Assembly: GCA_045568075.1 (NCBI GenBank)
Contig: JBJLBP010000001.1
Coordinates: forward strand, 102,307 to 166,306
DNA length: 64,000 bases
Direction of reading: 5' to 3'
DNA from: Candidatus Thalassarchaeaceae archaeon
GTDB lineage: Archaea; Thermoplasmatota; Poseidoniia; Poseidoniales; Thalassarchaeaceae
The notes beneath the pieces are model-generated. The model saw nothing but the letters and a program-made list of their open reading frames with translations, searched no databases and was not told the DNA's origin. Below, piece by piece: positions 7,198 through 35,682 of this stretch. The first letter of the stretch is position 1, and every line of letters begins with the position of its first letter. Both the position numbers and the translations under genes were made by a program.

Positions 7198-9231
7198 GTG
7201 AGGTTGGAAGCAACCGTTCCCTTCAAAGAAGAGACCCCTGTCGGCAGTCGCGTCGATATCATGGTAAGCGACGCATCGGGATGGTACGCACGACTTGATA
7301 GGTCGTGCGAGAATAGAATCGAACAACTCGACTCGTGGCTTGATGCCTGGGAAGAGTCGATTCGGCACAATATCCCTATCGCAGCCACAATGCCCAGCGA
7401 TTGGCCCACACTGCCTGCTGGGCTACTCTCGAATCCAGGAGCGGTTCTCGACCATATGCTGGCGCGCTACGATGCTGAAATTGATGGTCGCTCGCCTCGC
7501 GGTGCTTACGCAACTCCCGCCCGCTTCGCGGATGCAATGCTCGCCGATGAGCTCGGTGAGCGAGGTGCCGGAGTATCAACTCAGATGCCAACGGACATTT
7601 CGCTGGCCGCTCTACCTCCTGGCTTCCGCGCCTTTGCCGCTCAAATGAACGAGGCAAACTCACCCGAACTGGACGATGATTTGGACGAGGCGGTGCTGGC
7701 TGGAGAGAAGACCGCCTCTGGAATCCCACTTCCCTTTGCCGACCCAGCAGTCGGAGCCGGCCTCTTCCCCGAGCGCGTACTGAAGGTTCACTACGAGCGA
7801 ATCGATGGAATGTCGGACTCGGCTCGAAAGGAGGATACAATTCGACTCCTCTCAAACATGCAACTTCTCGATATCTCTGAGATCGCCGTGAGCTGTACTC
7901 GTCGGCGTCTCTTACTGGTTCTAGCCAAATCGGGTCTCGTCGACCTCGATGGGCCTGGTGACGATTCGCGCATCGCCCGCGAGGAAGCGGAGATTCTACT
8001 CGATTCCAGCGTCCAGCATGGTGATGCACTGCGCGGCATCTGGCCTTGGAATGATGAGCCGCGCCTACTAATTTGCAATCCTCCTTGGTTGCGCATCAAG
8101 GATAGGTTCCGAGGTCATCCTGATGGTAGCAATCTGCGTAAGGAATTGTCTCGAGAGTTGCGCAGTATCACAGAGGATGATGGTCGGCTACGATTCAGCA
8201 CCCTTCTTGGTAATGTGAACCTCTACCGCCTATTCCTCGAGCGTTCCTTACAACTCGTCAGCGAAGGAGGTCGAGTTCGTATGATTGTACCCGATTCACT
8301 GTTGCGCGAGAAGAGTAGCGTACCTCTTCGAAAGCTCATCGTCGAGCGGAACGAATGGGACTCAGCTTGGTCATTCCCTGAGAGTCAGAGGGTTTTCCCT
8401 GGGGTCTCGCAGGGTGTTCTTGTCATCGGCATCACCGTTGGGGGAGAAACTTCTGCTCTGAGGAGCTGGGGTCCTTTGGAGAGCAGCGATGTTCTACCTT
8501 CGACTGGACTCGACCCAAAATCACCGGAACTCGTCCTTGAGCGCGAAATTTGGTCGGTCTGGACCGATATGAATTGGGCTGTCCCGAGAATGCCGCGCGC
8601 TGAACATGAGCGCCGCTCGGTTCTGAAGGCGATTTCGCAACTCGCTGAACTGCCTCGCCTATCTGAGGAACATAATTGGCTCAACCCGAGTGGCGAACCA
8701 ATCCGTGTTCGTGTCGGAGAAATTGACCAAACTACGTGGTCGTCTGACATCCGTGATTGGAACCCTCGCTCTCGTGGCACACCATTCATCCGCGGAATCC
8801 ACTTCAACCTCGATGGAAGCAAGGTCTCAATCAACCACCCTGGATACAACTCCTCGATCCCAAGGGACTCACTCGAGCGGTCGCAGGCTCTGTGGAAGGG
8901 GCCTATCGAGTCGCGCGGAGTAAGTCGGATCGCTTGCCAGGCCATCGTTAACGCTCAGCAAAACCGCCGACTGCGTTGGGTCGTCGTACCCCCAGACTGT
9001 GTTCTAGGGAATTCGGTGAATTTCCTCGAGTTGCCAGAGGCTGTTCTAGACAGTCTCGCAGAGCAGTATGGAACTCTCGATGATGGTCTGCTCTGGCTTG
9101 CTGAGCACCTAAACTCAGACAAACTCAATCTCTGGTCACGTGCCTGGGCGGCGAATAATAACGTCAACAATTACGAGATCGAAAACCTACCCTTCCCACC
9201 CCCAGTCAGCCTCGCTGCTATTCAACTGTGA
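7198..9231 (+). CDS. N6-adenine-specific DNA methyltransferase, gamma class (Eco57I/TaqI-like)
   Basis: Motif X GAYATPARFADAML, motif I FADPAVGAGLF and motif IV LLICNPPWLRIKD in gamma-class order, followed by a roughly 380-aa C-terminal domain; GTG at 7198 or ATG at 7261 as start. Confidence 0.7.
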   Translation: MRLEATVPFKEETPVGSRVDIMVSDASGWYARLDRSCENRIEQLDSWLDAWEESIRHNIPIAATMPSDWPTLPAGLLSNPGAVLDHMLARYDAEIDGRSPRGAYATPARFADAMLADELGERGAGVSTQMPTDISLAALPPGFRAFAAQMNEANSPELDDDLDEAVLAGEKTASGIPLPFADPAVGAGLFPERVLKVHYERIDGMSDSARKEDTIRLLSNMQLLDISEIAVSCTRRRLLLVLAKSGLVDLDGPGDDSRIAREEAEILLDSSVQHGDALRGIWPWNDEPRLLICNPPWLRIKDRFRGHPDGSNLRKELSRELRSITEDDGRLRFSTLLGNVNLYRLFLERSLQLVSEGGRVRMIVPDSLLREKSSVPLRKLIVERNEWDSAWSFPESQRVFPGVSQGVLVIGITVGGETSALRSWGPLESSDVLPSTGLDPKSPELVLEREIWSVWTDMNWAVPRMPRAEHERRSVLKAISQLAELPRLSEEHNWLNPSGEPIRVRVGEIDQTTWSSDIRDWNPRSRGTPFIRGIHFNLDGSKVSINHPGYNSSIPRDSLERSQALWKGPIESRGVSRIACQAIVNAQQNRRLRWVVVPPDCVLGNSVNFLELPEAVLDSLAEQYGTLDDGLLWLAEHLNSDKLNLWSRAWAANNNVNNYEIENLPFPPPVSLAAIQL

Positions 9232-28780: not shown

Positions 28781-29218
28781 ATGGAGCGCCTCGAGTCCGT
28801 TGACGAGGTAGTCGCGAAATACGCGAAAAAAACTACTACGTTACGTCGACGATTATATGTCGCAATAGGCTCTCTGTTCGTCGGTTTCTCGTTCATTGGA
28901 ATCTTCGTCCCTGGATGGCCGACGGTGTCTTGGATGGTGCCTGCGGCGTACCTGTTTTCCCTCTCGGATGAGCGGTTCTTCAGGTGGACTTTGACAAACG
29001 GTATTGTTGGTGACAAGGTCTTCGAGTACTACGCTAATGGCAAGACGCTTCCTCGCCACGCAAAGAATGGAATTATTGGATTCATTACACTAATGTCCGC
29101 CGTCTCGATTTACGTTGTCTCAATAGCTGGAGATCCTGGATATGGGCAGGCTACGATTGCTATCGCCTGGTTAGTTGGTGTTTGGTGGCTATGGAAGAAA
29201 GTTCCAGCCAGAAATTGA
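28781..29218 (+). CDS. DUF454 (YbaN-like) inner membrane protein
   Basis: FVGFSFIGIFVPGWPT motif and 3-4 TM helices. Confidence 0.6.
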   Translation: MERLESVDEVVAKYAKKTTTLRRRLYVAIGSLFVGFSFIGIFVPGWPTVSWMVPAAYLFSLSDERFFRWTLTNGIVGDKVFEYYANGKTLPRHAKNGIIGFITLMSAVSIYVVSIAGDPGYGQATIAIAWLVGVWWLWKKVPARN

Positions 29219-29292
29219 TTGTCGGAAAGTTCCGCTTATGGTCAAGAGATAGTACAATAAACCCTGAATTTTCTCTAGAAGTTAGGTGACGG

Positions 29293-30546
29293 TTGTTGGA
29301 CGCTAATGAGTTCATCAGAGAAGTCGAGGACTTCGATGAATTTGGCACTGAAACCGTGTTCGAAGATTACGAGTGGGAAGTAAATGAACGCTCAGGAGTA
29401 ACTCGCAAGGCCATTAACGAGTTCTGGACGAGCGCTCAAAGACAAGGCAATAGTCTGCATGAGATATCTTACCGAGCCTGTTTCAAACCACAACTCCCTG
29501 GCTTCTTCATCTCAAGACTCACGGAGGTTGGTGAGGGCGTTTACGACCCATTCATGGGAAGAGGAACTACGCTGCTCGAGGCGTTCTTGCAGGGAAGAAA
29601 GCCACTTGGCAACGACATAAATCCACTCAGTGCTGCACTACTTGAGCCAAGGATTAATCCACCCACATACGAAGATGTGGAGGCTCGGCTGAATCAAATC
29701 GATCTGGGGGTAGCAGAGGAGAGTTACCCCGAATTAGAGGTGTTTTTCCACCCTGATACGCTTAGACAAATTATTGCCCTGAAAGAATACTTTCTCAGAA
29801 GGGAATCGTCAGGTGAAATCGATAATGTCGACAAATGGATTCGCATGGTTGCAATAAACAGACTGACCGGTCATTCGCCTGGTTTCTTCTCTGTATATTC
29901 ACTACCTCCAAATCAAGCGGTGTCGATAAAGAGCCAAAGAAAAATCAACGAAAAGAGAGAGCAAACTCCTGAATCTAAAGAGATTAAACCGAGGATTCTC
30001 AAGCGAACGAAAGCATTGCTAAAAGATTGGAATGGGGCCCCACTGAATCACACTGGCCTCGATCTTTCACCATCATTGACAGTCGAGGATGCGGCCGGCG
30101 CTATGAGTATCCCGAGCTCGTCTGCAGGTCTGGTTGTGACCTCCCCGCCTTTCCTAGACGTTGTCGACTACCAAGGAGACAACTGGATGCGATGTTGGTT
30201 CTTGGGAATCGATGCTTCGACTGTTGAGATTACTGAGTTGAAGAAGCCTGAGGATTGGAAAGCAAAGATGACTGAAGTCATGCGTGATCTGAGTAGAATC
30301 CTGAAGCCCAGTGGTTACCTCGCCTTCGAGGTTGGAGAAGTCACTTACAAGAGAGAAAAGTTGCTTCTTGAAGAATTAGTTCTTGAGGCGGGAGTAGAGG
30401 CTGGATTAGAGCCAGTAATCATCATGATTAACGATCAGGAATTCACCAAGACTTCGAATGCGTGGGGCGTTGACAATCTATCGAAAGGAACCAATACCAA
30501 TCGTATTGTCATCTTTGAGAATGTTACAAATCATTTACCAAACTGA
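29293..30546 (+). CDS. DNA methyltransferase of the N4-cytosine/N6-adenine (pfam01555-like) type, permuted motif order; predicted N4-cytosine
   Basis: Motif I region PQLPGFFISRLTEVGEGVYDPFMGRGTTLLEAFLQGRKPLGNDINP near the N-terminus; motif IV LVVTSPPFLDVVDYQGDNW and RILKPSGYL near the C-terminus; SPPF (Ser) is more typical of m4C than m6A enzymes; local GC about 35-47%. Confidence 0.65.
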   Translation: MLDANEFIREVEDFDEFGTETVFEDYEWEVNERSGVTRKAINEFWTSAQRQGNSLHEISYRACFKPQLPGFFISRLTEVGEGVYDPFMGRGTTLLEAFLQGRKPLGNDINPLSAALLEPRINPPTYEDVEARLNQIDLGVAEESYPELEVFFHPDTLRQIIALKEYFLRRESSGEIDNVDKWIRMVAINRLTGHSPGFFSVYSLPPNQAVSIKSQRKINEKREQTPESKEIKPRILKRTKALLKDWNGAPLNHTGLDLSPSLTVEDAAGAMSIPSSSAGLVVTSPPFLDVVDYQGDNWMRCWFLGIDASTVEITELKKPEDWKAKMTEVMRDLSRILKPSGYLAFEVGEVTYKREKLLLEELVLEAGVEAGLEPVIIMINDQEFTKTSNAWGVDNLSKGTNTNRIVIFENVTNHLPN

Positions 30547-30997
30547 GGAATTTAGTTCTCGGAATCTTGCTGTTTTTGCCCAGATCACCGCTATGCCACC
30601 ATTGTTTCACTGTCTCATATCGAATGATCCAGTACGGCATTTCTGGGAAGCGTGTGATGTCGGTGACAAAGTATCCCTCAACATCATCGAGTTTGTCTAG
30701 GAATCCCAATTCATCGAACTTGCGCCCGGAACCTACCATGTATGAAGGACAAAAGTAGATGCCCCCCTTAGTGAGGCTTCTAACTTCCCAATTTCCGCCA
30801 TCTGCATCAATCAGGTCGAAGCCCGAGCCTTCGCTTGGGGCCAATTCTGAGCCGGGCATTGATTCGACTGCTCGGCGCTCAATTAGGAAGGAAACTCTAC
30901 GCCCATCAGTGAAGTACTTTCGAGTATCTTCTAGAGAAATATGCAACGACTCGGAAATTGCTTCCAGATCAAAAGTTAGCCAGCCGCTGGGTTGCAT
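30524..30997 (-). CDS. hypothetical 157-aa protein, candidate restriction endonuclease partner
   Basis: Convergent with and overlapping the methyltransferase 3' end by 23 nt; ATG at 30997; possible PD-(D/E)xK-like segment GFDLIDADGGNWEVRSLTK; assignment is inference. Confidence 0.4.
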   Translation of the reverse strand: MQPSGWLTFDLEAISESLHISLEDTRKYFTDGRRVSFLIERRAVESMPGSELAPSEGSGFDLIDADGGNWEVRSLTKGGIYFCPSYMVGSGRKFDELGFLDKLDDVEGYFVTDITRFPEMPYWIIRYETVKQWWHSGDLGKNSKIPRTKFLSLVNDL

Positions 30998-31035
30998 AAT
31001 TGTGGGAAATATGGGGCATTGAAAAGACTTCTTAG

Positions 31036-32628
31036 TCAGTGAAGGAAGAGCCTCTGCCCAGTGAATATCATCGCCATTCCATGCTCATCAGCAGCATCGA
31101 TTGATTCCTGATCTCGCATCGATCCTCCTGGCTGAACAACTGTAGTCACGCCAATCTCATGAGCGGTGTCAATACCATCACGGAATGGGAAGAAGGCGTC
31201 TGACACCATCATCGAACCCTTGGCTCTCTCGCCGGCTCTTCGTGCTGCAATTCGAACTGCCTCAACTCTGCTGGTTTGACCCGGCCCAACTCCTACTGTT
31301 GCAAAACCTGTCTCTGTCTGAGCAACCAAGACAATCGAATTCGACTTGACTTCGGAAAGAACAGTTGAGCCAAACCGTGCGAGTGCTACAAGGTCGTCAT
31401 TGGCTGGTGCCTTGGTGACGCAACGGACTGCTGACCAATCTACAGATGGAGGGCCTTGGACTTGGGCGACCCACCCTCCATCGAGCTGGCGGATTCTCAC
31501 CTCGTCTTCGCGTGGTGTGAAATTCTCTAGAGTGAGCATCCTTCGATTCTTCTTTTCGGAAAGGATTGCGAGTGCATCGGCTTCGTAGCCGGGGGCGATG
31601 ATGCACTCGAGGAAATGACCGCCGATTGCTTCGGCGGTCGCCTTCTCGACAACGCTCGTGAAAGCGATCACACAGCCGAATGCAGATTCGGGGTCGCTTG
31701 CAAGAGCGTTCTGCCAAGCACCAACCTGCGTTGCGTCAATTGCCGCTCCGCAGGGATTTGTGTGCTTGATGACGACGCAGCCTTGTGGGCGCGCTTCGTC
31801 GGTGTCGCGGAGCAATCCGCGTGCGATCCGAAGCGCACCATCAAGGTCGAGATAATTGTTGAATGAAAGTTCCTTGCCGCCGTGCTGCACGGCTGCGGCC
31901 AAGCCAATTGGACCCGTGGCACTGGCACCTGGATAGAACGCAGCCGGCTGGTGAGGATTCTCTCCATATCGCAGTTCTGTTCCGGTCTCGCTGGCAACGT
32001 GGATGCGGCTTGGAACGTCTGGCGAGTTGAATCTCTCATCCAACTCGCCGCTAACCGCCGCATCGTAAGCGGCAGTGGTTTGGAAGGCTTCCAACGCCAA
32101 TTGTTTGCGAGCCTCTAGGCTGACTCCTGATGGGTCGCCATTGGAAGCCTCCAATGCCCCCAACACTGAGTCATATTGCTCAGGCGAAGTTAGCACCAAG
32201 CAATCCTTGTGATTCTTCGCCGCTGAACGGATCATCGTTGGCCCGCCAATGTCAATCATCTCAATCAATTCAGCATCTGGAGCTGGCGGGTCCTTCGCAG
32301 CCACTGCTTCGAATGGGTACAGATTGACACAAACCAAGTCGACCGTGCGATATCCCAGCTCTTCGAGCATCTCCATGTCGTCTGCACGGTCGCGACGGAC
32401 TAGGATACCACCGTGTACTGCGGGATGTAGAGTTTTGACCCGTCCGTCGAAACATTCCGGATGTCCAGTGGCATCACTGACATCGATGACCGGCAAGCCT
32501 GCCTCACGCAAAGCACGCGAGGTTCCGCCCGTCGAGAGTAATTCCCAGCCAAGGGAGTTGAGGGACTTTCCAAGTTCGACAATCCCCTCCTTGTGGAAGA
32601 CGCTGAGCAGAGCGCGGGGCGCTGTCAT
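31036..32628 (-). CDS. purH: bifunctional AICAR transformylase / IMP cyclohydrolase
   Basis: MTAPRALLSVFHKEGIVELGKSL...GGTSRAL...GRVKTLHPAVHGGIL; ATG at 32628 inside ORF 31036-32778. Confidence 0.92.
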   Translation of the reverse strand: MTAPRALLSVFHKEGIVELGKSLNSLGWELLSTGGTSRALREAGLPVIDVSDATGHPECFDGRVKTLHPAVHGGILVRRDRADDMEMLEELGYRTVDLVCVNLYPFEAVAAKDPPAPDAELIEMIDIGGPTMIRSAAKNHKDCLVLTSPEQYDSVLGALEASNGDPSGVSLEARKQLALEAFQTTAAYDAAVSGELDERFNSPDVPSRIHVASETGTELRYGENPHQPAAFYPGASATGPIGLAAAVQHGGKELSFNNYLDLDGALRIARGLLRDTDEARPQGCVVIKHTNPCGAAIDATQVGAWQNALASDPESAFGCVIAFTSVVEKATAEAIGGHFLECIIAPGYEADALAILSEKKNRRMLTLENFTPREDEVRIRQLDGGWVAQVQGPPSVDWSAVRCVTKAPANDDLVALARFGSTVLSEVKSNSIVLVAQTETGFATVGVGPGQTSRVEAVRIAARRAGERAKGSMMVSDAFFPFRDGIDTAHEIGVTTVVQPGGSMRDQESIDAADEHGMAMIFTGQRLFLH

Positions 32629-32675
32629 ACAACGGCGTAGCCGCATCCGGCTTGAAGTGTTCGCGGAGGCCAATT

Positions 32676-34247
32676 TCAGTCGCCGCGAGCGCTGATGACC
32701 TGATCGATTCGAAGCATACTCATCGCCGTCTCGACTGAGGACTCTAGCCCTTCCTCGATAACCGCCCGTGGATGCCATACGCCTGGAACCTCTCCAACCT
32801 CTCCATCGGCCTTGATTCCAATAGCCGGACCGTCCTCTCGAGCAGCAGCGCGCATTTCGAGAACGGCGTCAAGCGAGTCTTTGCCAGCATTGTCGGCGAG
32901 TGTTGCCATGATTGTCTCCTGTGCGCGCGCGAAGGCATCCATAGCCAGCCGTGCGCGCCCCGACTCGTTCTCACTAGCCTTGCGAACAGCATGTGCAATT
33001 CGGGCGTGTGAGGCCCCTCCTCCAGCGAGCAGTTGTCCGTTTTCGAGAGCAATGCTGGTAGCTCGTAATGCATCGTGAAGACCTCGGATAATCTCCTCAG
33101 TAGCGGTCTCCCCAGCACCACCGATTGCCAATGTGACGGCGCCCGGATTGTTGCAATCATCGATGGTGATGATATCCTCGACTTGGTCGGTCGCCTGTCG
33201 GCGCTCCCAACGAACGCTACCAGCCAAACCGAGATCGCTCGCTTCGATATCTAACACTGAATCGAGGACTGTCGCTCCAGTCGCAGCAGCAGCATTTTCC
33301 AACTCGGATTCATCGAGTTCGGGGACGGCTAGAATTTTCGCATCTGCCAAATCATGCAGAATATCGCGGTCAATCTCGCCGCCAGCAAGAATCAGATTCG
33401 CTCCAGAGTCAATCAGCGCCTTTGCCAACTCGCTCTTTCGCTCGCTCTCAGCCTCGACGAATCCATCGAGCTGTTCTGCAGAAGTAATCTGAATCTCGGC
33501 GGTGCGAGTCATCTTGCGAATCTTGACATCGCCGCCGATAACAACTGTCCGAGCATTCACCAAATCATTCGGCAAGGAATCCATCAGAACTCGGCGGCGA
33601 ATAGCAACACCACGAATCAAATGACTATCGCGGAGTCCTCCTGAGCCGATCTTGAACATCGCTACATGCTCGGCTCCGGGCTTGTCGACGCTTTCTTCAA
33701 CCGCAGTCAAAGCGTCGCGCACCATCGGTGCGAAAATATCGATTGCAGCCTCGGTTCCCTTACCGGTCAAGGCGGTTTCAGCGACGCCTAAAAGACGCTC
33801 CTCATCGACATCAACAGCGTCGCTGTCCATCTGTTCGGAAGCAACCGCCATCGCCGTTCGATAGCCGTCAACGAGAGTAAGTGGGTGAAGTCCTTTGGAG
33901 AGTAAATTGTTGGCTTCTTCGAGAAGAGCACCACAGAGCATCATCGTCGTTGTGACGCCGTCTCCGCATGCCTCTTCCTGGGTATTGCCCATCGCCACCA
34001 TCATCTTAGCAGCGGGATGTTTGACCATCAACTCGGCTACGATTTTTGCTCCATCGTTGGTCACCGCGGTCGAACCATTGGTTTTGTAGAGCATCTTATC
34101 GAGGCCCCGTGGGCCATAAGTTGGCTTCAGAAGATTCGAAAATACGCGTGCTGCTGAAATGAGCTTTTCCTGAACGGCCGTGCCACTGGTTACGCTGGTC
34201 TCCTCACTGACCACGACCACCGGAGGCTTGCCTGCTTCCTCGCTCAT
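32676..34247 (-). CDS. thermosome subunit (group II chaperonin)
   Basis: LKPTYGPRGLDKMLY, GDGVTTT ATP-binding motif and overall Cpn60/TCP-1 architecture; probable ATG at 34247 (MSEEAGKPPVVVV) inside ORF 32676-34412. Confidence 0.85.
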   Translation of the reverse strand: MSEEAGKPPVVVVSEETSVTSGTAVQEKLISAARVFSNLLKPTYGPRGLDKMLYKTNGSTAVTNDGAKIVAELMVKHPAAKMMVAMGNTQEEACGDGVTTTMMLCGALLEEANNLLSKGLHPLTLVDGYRTAMAVASEQMDSDAVDVDEERLLGVAETALTGKGTEAAIDIFAPMVRDALTAVEESVDKPGAEHVAMFKIGSGGLRDSHLIRGVAIRRRVLMDSLPNDLVNARTVVIGGDVKIRKMTRTAEIQITSAEQLDGFVEAESERKSELAKALIDSGANLILAGGEIDRDILHDLADAKILAVPELDESELENAAAATGATVLDSVLDIEASDLGLAGSVRWERRQATDQVEDIITIDDCNNPGAVTLAIGGAGETATEEIIRGLHDALRATSIALENGQLLAGGGASHARIAHAVRKASENESGRARLAMDAFARAQETIMATLADNAGKDSLDAVLEMRAAAREDGPAIGIKADGEVGEVPGVWHPRAVIEEGLESSVETAMSMLRIDQVISARGD

Positions 34248-34308
34248 CGGCCCGCCGACCGAAGAGTCCGTCAAGAACCCTTGCGAATAGTACTGTATGC
34301 TGAATTTT

Positions 34309-35682
34309 TCAGCGTCGTCCGCGTTTTTGCTTCCTGCCGCCCTTGCGCTTTCCGCTGCCGTGCTCCCATTGCCTGCCGGAGCGAGAGCGCCATTCATCGC
34401 TGTCGTTTCCACCCCACGACTCGCGCTCGACCTTCTTTCTCAGGGCTCGAGGGAGCTCTGTTACTGATTTTACATTGAGTTTGATACGGCCCAGATCCTT
34501 TTCGAGGGAACGAATAGCATCGCCGCCTGGGCCGACCATGGCACCAATTGCTGAATCGTCGACATAGATGTCGGCAGATGCATCGGTGAGGAATTTTGCG
34601 TGAAGTACTGAGATCCCTGTGAGTCGGGTCGCCTCGCGCTTGAGTTCTTCCGCTGCGAGGCGCCATGCGGGGCTGCCGCCTTCGCCAGCTGCTCCACTGA
34701 CTGGAACTACTGCAATTTCCGAGCCGAAGGCGAACATTTCGTGAGTCAACTCGCCGCTCGGGAATCGCTTGATTTCGATGACCGGGCGGCTGAGATCTGA
34801 TTCCATTCCAGTTGGAGCACGTACTACCATCTTGAGTTCGAGAACCTCGCTTACCTTGCCCTTCTCGATGTTGATTACTGTGTCTAGAACTTGTGAAATG
34901 AGTCCGAGTTCGACCTTACCTACGAGCCTCTGGATGGCTTCCAGTGCGCTATTTGCGTGGGTCACACCGAGTAATCCTACACCGGCGAGGCGGACATCTC
35001 CGAAAATCTCGAAGTCGCGGGCTCGGCGAACCTCGTCAAAGATGACGAAATCTGGTCTGACGAGGAAGATGACTTCTGCTGTCTTCTCCAAATCACCTTC
35101 GAGGGGAGCGTATTGTGTAACGCGCTGAGGGACTTGCAAATCTCTTGGTGCTTCCATAGTCTTGACCATCGCACCCACCGTCTCGTCAAGGTGCGCTGCA
35201 ATCGCCTGAGCGAAGGTCGTCTTGCCGCTTCCTGGCTTGCCGACGACGAATACACCACGATGGTGATCAGATAGACGCCCCACAAGTTCGTCTTGTAGTT
35301 CGTAATCGCTGAGTTTGAGGTGTGCCACCGGTCGCACAACTGTGATTTCCCAAGCCTCCGAGAATGGTGGCCAAGCGCAGGTGACTCGTAAATCTCCAAT
35401 CTGCATGATTCGACAGCCCTCGCGCTCGATTTCGATGAAACAATCCGAGCGCGCTTCGTGCTGCTCAATCACCATCATCAACTCCTCAGACAGACTCTCA
35501 AGAGCTGGTTTGTCCCAGATATCCTTGGAAACTTCCTCTAACCGGAGAGCGCTGATGTGTCCGGCCTTCACTCTTGGAGGGCATTCCGCCTTCAGGAAAA
35601 CCGTAGACGCCGTCTCATCAGCGAGCAGATTCTCGAGCGAATCAGGAAGTGGAGGGTGGTCGCCGAAGGTTGCCATATTCAT
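34309..35682 (-). CDS. PIN-domain ATPase with C-terminal KH domain (PilT-family ATPase, COG1855-like)
   Basis: Walker A VVGKPGSGKTTFAQA, Walker B VIFDEV, C-terminal KH-like GAMVGPGGDAIRSLEKDLG and basic tail. Confidence 0.7.
   Translation of the reverse strand: MNMATFGDHPPLPDSLENLLADETASTVFLKAECPPRVKAGHISALRLEEVSKDIWDKPALESLSEELMMVIEQHEARSDCFIEIEREGCRIMQIGDLRVTCAWPPFSEAWEITVVRPVAHLKLSDYELQDELVGRLSDHHRGVFVVGKPGSGKTTFAQAIAAHLDETVGAMVKTMEAPRDLQVPQRVTQYAPLEGDLEKTAEVIFLVRPDFVIFDEVRRARDFEIFGDVRLAGVGLLGVTHANSALEAIQRLVGKVELGLISQVLDTVINIEKGKVSEVLELKMVVRAPTGMESDLSRPVIEIKRFPSGELTHEMFAFGSEIAVVPVSGAAGEGGSPAWRLAAEELKREATRLTGISVLHAKFLTDASADIYVDDSAIGAMVGPGGDAIRSLEKDLGRIKLNVKSVTELPRALRKKVERESWGGNDSDEWRSRSGRQWEHGSGKRKGGRKQKRGRR

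Follow-up and report, generated by a model that had tools for sequence, protein, structure and literature searches.

We analysed a window of 64,000 nucleotides (nt) from a Candidatus Thalassarchaeaceae archaeon of the order Poseidoniales (contig JBJLBP010000001.1, positions 102,307 to 166,306), the whole stretch to which the coordinates below refer unless another locus is named. Between the genes for a DUF454 membrane protein and purH, it carries two convergent open reading frames (ORFs), which an earlier note, made from the letters alone, had proposed to be a horizontally acquired restriction-modification (R-M) pair. Both ORFs are intact, and their positions (29293-30546 on the plus strand and 30524-30997 on the minus strand), convergence and 23-nt overlap were as claimed there. 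Pfam profiles confirmed the purN, DUF454 and purH genes that the note had named on either side. The features of the locus, with enzymatic and catalytic roles as predicted, are listed below.

29293..30546, plus strand: predicted alpha-class N6/N4 DNA methyltransferase (MTase) gene, 417 amino acids (aa), TTG start, with a second TTG at 29296
29545..29571, plus strand: predicted MTase motif I (binding of S-adenosylmethionine, SAM), DPFMGRGTT, aa 85-93, from sequence alignment
30139..30153, plus strand: predicted MTase motif IV (catalytic), TSPPF, aa 283-287, from sequence alignment
30524..30997, minus strand: predicted type IIP restriction endonuclease (REase) gene, 157 aa, ATG start, predicted PvuII-like PD-(D/E)XK fold
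30767..30835, minus strand: predicted catalytic hairpin of the REase, aa 55-77 (SEGSGFDLIDADGGNWEVRSLTK), with invariant E56, G57, D61, D64, W70, E71, R73 and S74
30872..30880, minus strand: E40-R41-R42 in helix 32-46 of the REase, invariant; candidate acidic or DNA-contact residues
30524..30546, no strand: overlap of the convergent 3' ends of the MTase and REase genes, 23 nt
29249..29273, plus strand: promoter-like element ATAGTACAATAAACCCTGAATTTTC upstream of the MTase gene, with GTAC at 29252-29255
29219..31035, no strand: inserted cassette, 1817 bp, with the MTase and REase genes as its sole genes
28781..29218, plus strand: DUF454 membrane protein gene, host left flank (Pfam PF04304, E 1e-19)
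31036..32628, minus strand: purH, host right flank (Pfam AICARFT_IMPCHas and MGS)

By its motifs and profile matches, the 417-aa protein is an alpha-class N6/N4 amino-MTase. It matched the PADLOC model MTase_II PDLC03325 with an E-value of 2.3e-159 (aa 5-409 on profile positions 21-422 of 426) and Pfam PF01555 with 54.8 bits (cut-off, 26.7), and more than 8000 homologues were found. In a sequence search of the PDB, motif I aligned with motif I of TTHA0409, M.PvuII and N4-cytosine MTases, and motif IV with the SPPY of 2zie. The motifs quoted by the earlier note were all present, GRKPLGNDI at aa 101-109 and RILKPSGYL at aa 335-343. The note had described their order as the reverse of the beta class. 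Motif I does precede motif IV, but the arrangement, with an insert of ~190 aa between the two, where the alpha class has its target-recognition region, is properly that of the alpha class and not merely a reversed beta order. Ser as the first residue of motif IV (SPP[YF]) correlates empirically with the formation of N4-methylcytosine (m4C), although the correlation is not proof, and the product of this MTase is probably m4C.

The 157-aa protein is, according to its predicted structure, a PvuII-like PD-(D/E)XK nuclease. The note had recognised no family in it, which was true for Pfam and NCBIfam, where no family matched, but false for PADLOC, whose REase_II model PDLC03550 matched the protein end to end with an E-value of 6.5e-45 (aa 7-152; 160 profile positions). 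The structure was predicted with a confidence (pLDDT) of 90 and contains the alpha-beta-beta-beta-alpha-beta core, in keeping with the suggestion of a PD-(D/E)xK-like strand in the segment FDLIDADGGNWEVRSLTK, which we located at aa 60-77 (30767-30820). The hairpin segment includes strands 62-63 and 69-76 in the model. The spacing of D61-X9-E71-x-R73 is identical to that of D58-X9-E68-x-K70 in PvuII, taking D58, E68 and K70 to be the PvuII residue numbers. An Arg residue (R73) thus occupies the position at which the signature D...(D/E)-x-K has Lys, and D61, D64, E71 and R73 are all invariant in the alignment of 23 sequences (A1) from which residue invariance was judged. Weak repeated matches of aa 45-90 (30730-30865) to the SH3 domains of Fyn/Src (E ~0.01) were judged to be due to chance because the predicted fold is that of a nuclease, not SH3. 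Homology searches for a name, including one with a profile of the archaeal members, returned 'hypothetical protein' entries alone, and none of ten compositionally chosen members among the 50%-identity representatives of the family was named. The family has ~1000-2000 members when clustered at 90% and forms 418 clusters at 50%. None of them is named, and Pfam, NCBIfam and the NCBI and JGI names carry no annotation of the family.

The genomic neighbourhood of this nuclease family provides further evidence for an R-M function. A scan of species-representative genomes yielded 80 REase loci in many phyla, with hosts among Poseidoniales, Marine Group III, Vicinamibacterales, Verrucomicrobia, Latescibacteria, DPANN archaea, Polynucleobacter and others. 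The MTase family found in the window directly adjoins the REase in ~55 of the 80 loci. At most of the remaining loci, the neighbour belongs to one of two other N6_N4 MTase families, namely a different alpha-type MTase of ~430 aa and a beta-type MTase of ~270 aa (PDLC03295, E 1e-100), both with TSPPY. To find a single nuclease family partnered by three MTase families is the classic mark of a restriction enzyme, and the SPP[YF] motif common to all partners favours m4C chemistry. Between the window and other copies of the cassette, the ratio of nonsynonymous to synonymous substitution rates (dN/dS) was 0.05-0.09 for the REase (four copies) and 0.10-0.13 for the MTase, values that show both genes to be under strong purifying selection. 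The PADLOC models, the MTase linkage and the purifying selection together support the R-M pair that the note had proposed.

The junction between the two genes varies among cassette copies. The 23-nt overlap is also found in L161 and L162, and the genes abut without overlap in L166. In L180, a 593-bp insertion (L180 10216-10808, corresponding to window ~30511-30533) lies exactly at the 3' junction, where an in-frame extension of 186 codons (P0123, 596 aa) takes the place of the last 7 MTase codons and the last 2 REase codons are changed. A distant MTase (P0232) is fused to a homologue of this extension with 68% identity, and the MTases P0199 and P0233 carry another extension of ~230 aa with 'EDVEVK'. 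MTase variants with such C-terminal modules are rare. Neither type of extension matched Pfam, PADLOC or PHROGs, and the structure model of the P0123 extension (pLDDT 55) was too poor for a fold search.

The cassette is a precise insertion between two housekeeping genes of the host. Alignments of relatives with an empty site to the window end exactly at the stop codons of the convergent DUF454 (29216-29218) and purH (31036-31038) genes, by which we defined the insert as 29219-31035. In the empty-site relatives L082 and L146, only 1-7 nt separate the two stops. The dip in GC content claimed by the note is real but milder than described: the insert has 46.5% GC (41.7-51% in 300-nt windows across it), compared with 55-56% in the flanks and 52% in the whole window. 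Neither a target-site duplication nor terminal repeats were found, and there was no recombinase gene and no remnant of a cassette. An inverted repeat (29270-29284 and 30925-30939; 15 nt, 93%), examined as a candidate for the ends of the cassette or for an operator, was rejected, because one arm lies inside conserved coding sequence and the other is not conserved in L166, and because ~0.1 such pairs are expected by chance according to our own estimate. With purN (Formyl_trans_N) near the left flank and a thermosome gene beyond purH, the locus has the gene order thermosome-purH-[gap]-DUF454-purN, which Poseidoniales conserve and which was seen in ~40 relatives. The longest purH ORF (580 aa) starts 150 nt before the conserved start (MTAPRALL..., 32628), and this upstream stretch (32629-32778) overlaps the 3' end of the thermosome gene (32676-34412). 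The N-terminal extension is probably untranslated because relatives point to the shorter form of ~530 aa.

A purH-based metagenome scan, which provided 80 loci for the comparison of synteny, bore out the horizontal acquisition suggested by the note, as relatives showed empty sites, alternative cargo and other contexts. The site is empty in L082, L146 and L084 (purH 85-95% identical), where the gap between purH and DUF454 is 7-61 nt. L141 (purH 95%) has the same nuclease at the same site, and L180, the closest long relative, is 97.5% identical to the window over 10.2 kb with the same left context. In the closest purH relative, L081 (93% nt identity), homology is lost at the purH stop, directly after which lies a D12/Dam-class MTase gene (L081 2132-3022, plus strand; PF02086, E 3e-55; PADLOC PDLC03294). 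The L081 contig stops before any partner gene of this MTase could appear. L083 has a membrane protein at the purH junction.

The cassette also occurs in further contexts at 86-92% nt identity, giving three contexts overall, with the pair moving as a unit. In L161 (5839-8047) and L162 (1974-4182), it abuts genes for a MutH/Sau3AI-type nuclease (PF02976) and a C5 cytosine MTase (PF00145), an arrangement that, judged by its gene content, is a small two-system defence islet. The REase call in these two loci carries a 30-aa N-terminal extension overlapping the C5 MTase gene. In L166-L171, the cassette lies beside an aldo-keto reductase in a context unrelated to purH. Nevertheless, a fragment of the purH C terminus of 51 codons (L166 4953-5105, also in L167-L171), with an in-frame stop, is found directly upstream of the REase; it covers 139 nt of the purH 3' end with 84-86% aa identity. 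This decayed piece, a molecular fossil, shows that the copy came from a purH-adjacent arrangement and carried flanking DNA along. A tblastn search with the REase found no match in annotated plasmids and phages, there was no match in PHROGs, and 2.9 million viral contigs contained 8 distant relatives only. These nearly empty searches give no evidence for a viral or plasmid vector.

The variable states of the site, namely the GTAC-type pair, the Dam-class MTase, the membrane protein and the empty junction, led us to suggest, tentatively and at less than even odds, that the purH-stop junction may be a recombination hotspot of this Poseidoniales lineage at which alternative MTase or R-M cassettes are exchanged without a dedicated recombinase. 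On this reading, the cassette also spreads by dragging host DNA along, and the nuclease family would be a PvuII-like lineage with Arg in place of the canonical catalytic Lys. The idea that the purH-DUF454 gap is a general defence island was rejected for distant relatives. Their gap of 1-2.7 kb has host-like GC content and contains, by eye, genes for a DEAD-box helicase, ABC-F, photolyase, cystathionine enzymes and CoA-transferase. Such ordinary genes in distant genera indicate that R-M-type swapping is a feature of the close lineage and not of a universal island. Elsewhere in the window, a 677-aa ORF with NPPW (7198-9231, plus strand; PF07669, Eco57I-type, E 2e-10; PADLOC MTase_II PDLC03237, E 1.2e-28) is a second candidate DNA MTase.

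The avoidance of short palindromes was used to assess the recognition site. The observed-to-expected ratio (O/E) in the window was 0.45 for GATC, 0.46 for AGCT, 0.57 for GTAC and 0.91 for CGCG. GTAC was scarcer in the window than in close cassette-free relatives (0.57 versus 0.77, p 0.02). Its median log2 O/E was -0.69 at diverse REase-positive loci versus -0.20 in controls (p 0.0026), and -0.62 at REase-positive Marine Group II (MGII) loci versus -0.19 at pair-free MGII loci (p 0.00046). CGCG, a common motif in marine metagenome-assembled genomes (MAGs) (PMC8919816), was rejected as the target because of its O/E in the window and because it is not depleted at REase-positive loci. M.RsaI and M.MjaV form GTA(m4C) (PMC3287169, PMC6256690, PMC2588503, PMC11033074), and the hosts of RsaI and MjaV avoid GTAC (PMC2588503). 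MTases forming m4C in GTAC are common in Euryarchaeota (PMC11033074), and marine Euryarchaeota MAGs with GTAC methylation have been reported (PMC8919816). Arithmetic on plasmid lengths (PMC3287169) gives sizes of ~409 aa for M.RsaI, ~278 aa for an m4C MTase of GATC and ~347 aa for one of AGCT.

The promoter-like element ATAGTACAATAAACCCTGAATTTTC forms the left limit of cassette homology and is kept in cassette copies of other genomic contexts (L161, L166, L001 and partly L003). The cassettes that retain this GTAC-bearing element are otherwise only ~65-90% identical and stand in differing contexts. Cassettes of different contexts share a conserved ATAGTACAATAAACCCTGAA that precedes the MTase start by ~40 nt, and AGGTGA lies 3' of the element, 6-11 nt before the start codon. 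Inspected by eye, the element is a possible promoter and AGGTGA a possible ribosome-binding site. GTAC was found upstream of 26% of MTase genes against a background of 12%, and much of this excess reflects shared ancestry. Autoregulation of the MTase by methylation of its own promoter is a speculative possibility. We favour GTAC with m4C as the target, at roughly even odds, because its depletion tracks the cassette, the MTase size matches and GTAC is conserved in the promoter-like element.

Some of our observations weigh against this assignment or against an active pair. GATC and AGCT are scarcer than GTAC in the window, GATC is also significantly depleted in both REase-positive sets (p 0.0012 and 0.0098), the likeness to RsaI and MjaV is one of description and not of compared sequences, and the catalytic Lys position is occupied by Arg. 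The first three would suit a genuine type II pair that recognises another avoided 4-bp palindrome, such as GATC or AGCT, or a longer site, and m4C MTases for GATC and AGCT do exist in environmental DNA (PMC3287169). We regard such a target as a serious contender, though short of an even chance. However, the depletion of GATC (O/E 0.25-0.58) and AGCT (0.26-0.51) in the window, L081-L096, L144 and L146 is equally strong with or without the cassette. It thus characterises the whole lineage, is more readily attributed to other systems, among them the Dam-class MTase of L081, and points to long-standing pressure from other R-M systems. Reports of widespread methylation of GATC and weak modification of AGCT in Poseidoniia (PMC8919816) fit this picture. 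Moreover, the O/E of AGCT is 0.98 at diverse REase-positive loci, the known m4C enzymes for GATC and AGCT are not of ~410 aa, and none of the four palindromic NGTACN 6-mers was depleted beyond the GTAC effect.

The Arg residue could instead indicate an inactive or decaying nuclease, leaving effectively an orphan MTase beside a relic, and it is indeed common for an M gene to outlast the loss or inactivation of its R gene, HpyAXII being an example (PMC2588503). We consider this improbable, since the REase has its full length and all the residues that are invariant in the family, and shows the low dN/dS given above; the invariance of R73 across phyla makes it a family trait rather than a lesion. 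Least probable of all is a PD-(D/E)XK nuclease of another role beside a solitary MTase, be it I-Ssp6803I-like homing, Hjc-like resolution or NhoI/Eco15I-like methylation-dependent cleavage, because the gene lies outside any intron or intein, is MTase-linked in most of the 80 loci with three MTase families and matches the PADLOC REase_II model end to end, while its distribution is patchy where archaeal Hjc is universal, and a nuclease dependent on methylation would, beside an MTase, turn on the DNA of its own cell.

A functional type IIP R-M cassette in a Poseidoniales archaeon is therefore the best explanation, to which we assign a probability of about 85%, with GTAC as its most likely target at the roughly even odds given above. 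We infer that the MTase would use SAM to methylate an exocyclic amine in a short palindromic host site, most likely to N4-methylcytosine, and that the 157-aa nuclease, most likely a homodimer as PvuII and with a core of D61...E71-x-R73 plus E40, would cut the same site when unmethylated, so that incoming viral or foreign DNA is destroyed. With GTAC as the most likely target, the product would be GTA(m4C) as for RsaI and MjaV, and blunt cutting would be in keeping with the fold lineage. The pair arrived recently, as a 1.8-kb unit without a recombinase, between the convergent DUF454 and purH stops. In related archaea it has moved among genomic sites, in one case or more together with a piece of purH.

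Poseidoniales (MGII), which abound in the surface ocean, have yet to be cultured, and their antiviral defences are known from sequence alone. The locus presents a clean, datable gain of an R-M system: its breakpoints are exact, near-identical relatives have the site empty, and other cargo is found at the same junction. It also exemplifies cassette movement that takes host DNA along. A function and a likely GTAC target can be attached to a nuclease family publicly called 'hypothetical', which should improve the annotation of defence systems in marine metagenomes and the reading of GTAC methylation in marine metaepigenomes. The understanding of the R-M mechanism is unchanged by the locus, as the pair is an ordinary one that would work like PvuII or RsaI, of a type II kind already captured by the hidden Markov models of defence systems. 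A modest interest is added by the precision of the insertion polymorphism, by the other cargo at the junction, by the purH fragment that was carried along and by a nuclease family that lacks annotation.

Among known systems, RsaI of Rhodobacter blasticus and MjaV of Methanocaldococcus jannaschii are, like the pair in the window, two-gene type IIP systems with an amino-MTase, which forms m4C in both and probably does so in the window; the comparison is by description and not between sequences, so that homology and identical specificity would be conjectural. The size of ~409 aa estimated for M.RsaI from plasmid lengths is close to the 417 aa of the window MTase, and the GTAC avoidance of the RsaI and MjaV hosts recurs in the window and at other REase-bearing loci. 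R.PvuII has 157 aa, as has the REase in the window, and M.PvuII, an m4C MTase, shares SPPF with the window MTase. The two nucleases have a sequence identity of 12-18% and a template modelling (TM) score of 0.40-0.48, and the catalytic Lys of PvuII is replaced by Arg. M.PvuII is a beta-class enzyme, whereas the window MTase is of the alpha class, and unlike PvuII, the cassette has no C (controller) gene and would recognise a different target. Homing endonucleases of the I-Ssp6803I type are encoded in self-splicing introns or inteins and target the allele that lacks the intron, in contrast to the free-standing REase gene between purH and the MTase gene. The N-terminal domains of NhoI and Eco15I are PvuII-like nucleases that cut methylated DNA and have no cognate MTase, whereas the REase described here is almost always MTase-linked. 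Full-length counterparts are the PADLOC models PDLC03325 and PDLC03550, which come without enzyme names or recognition sites; they are presumably derived from REBASE, and the family would thus already be catalogued as type II R-M.
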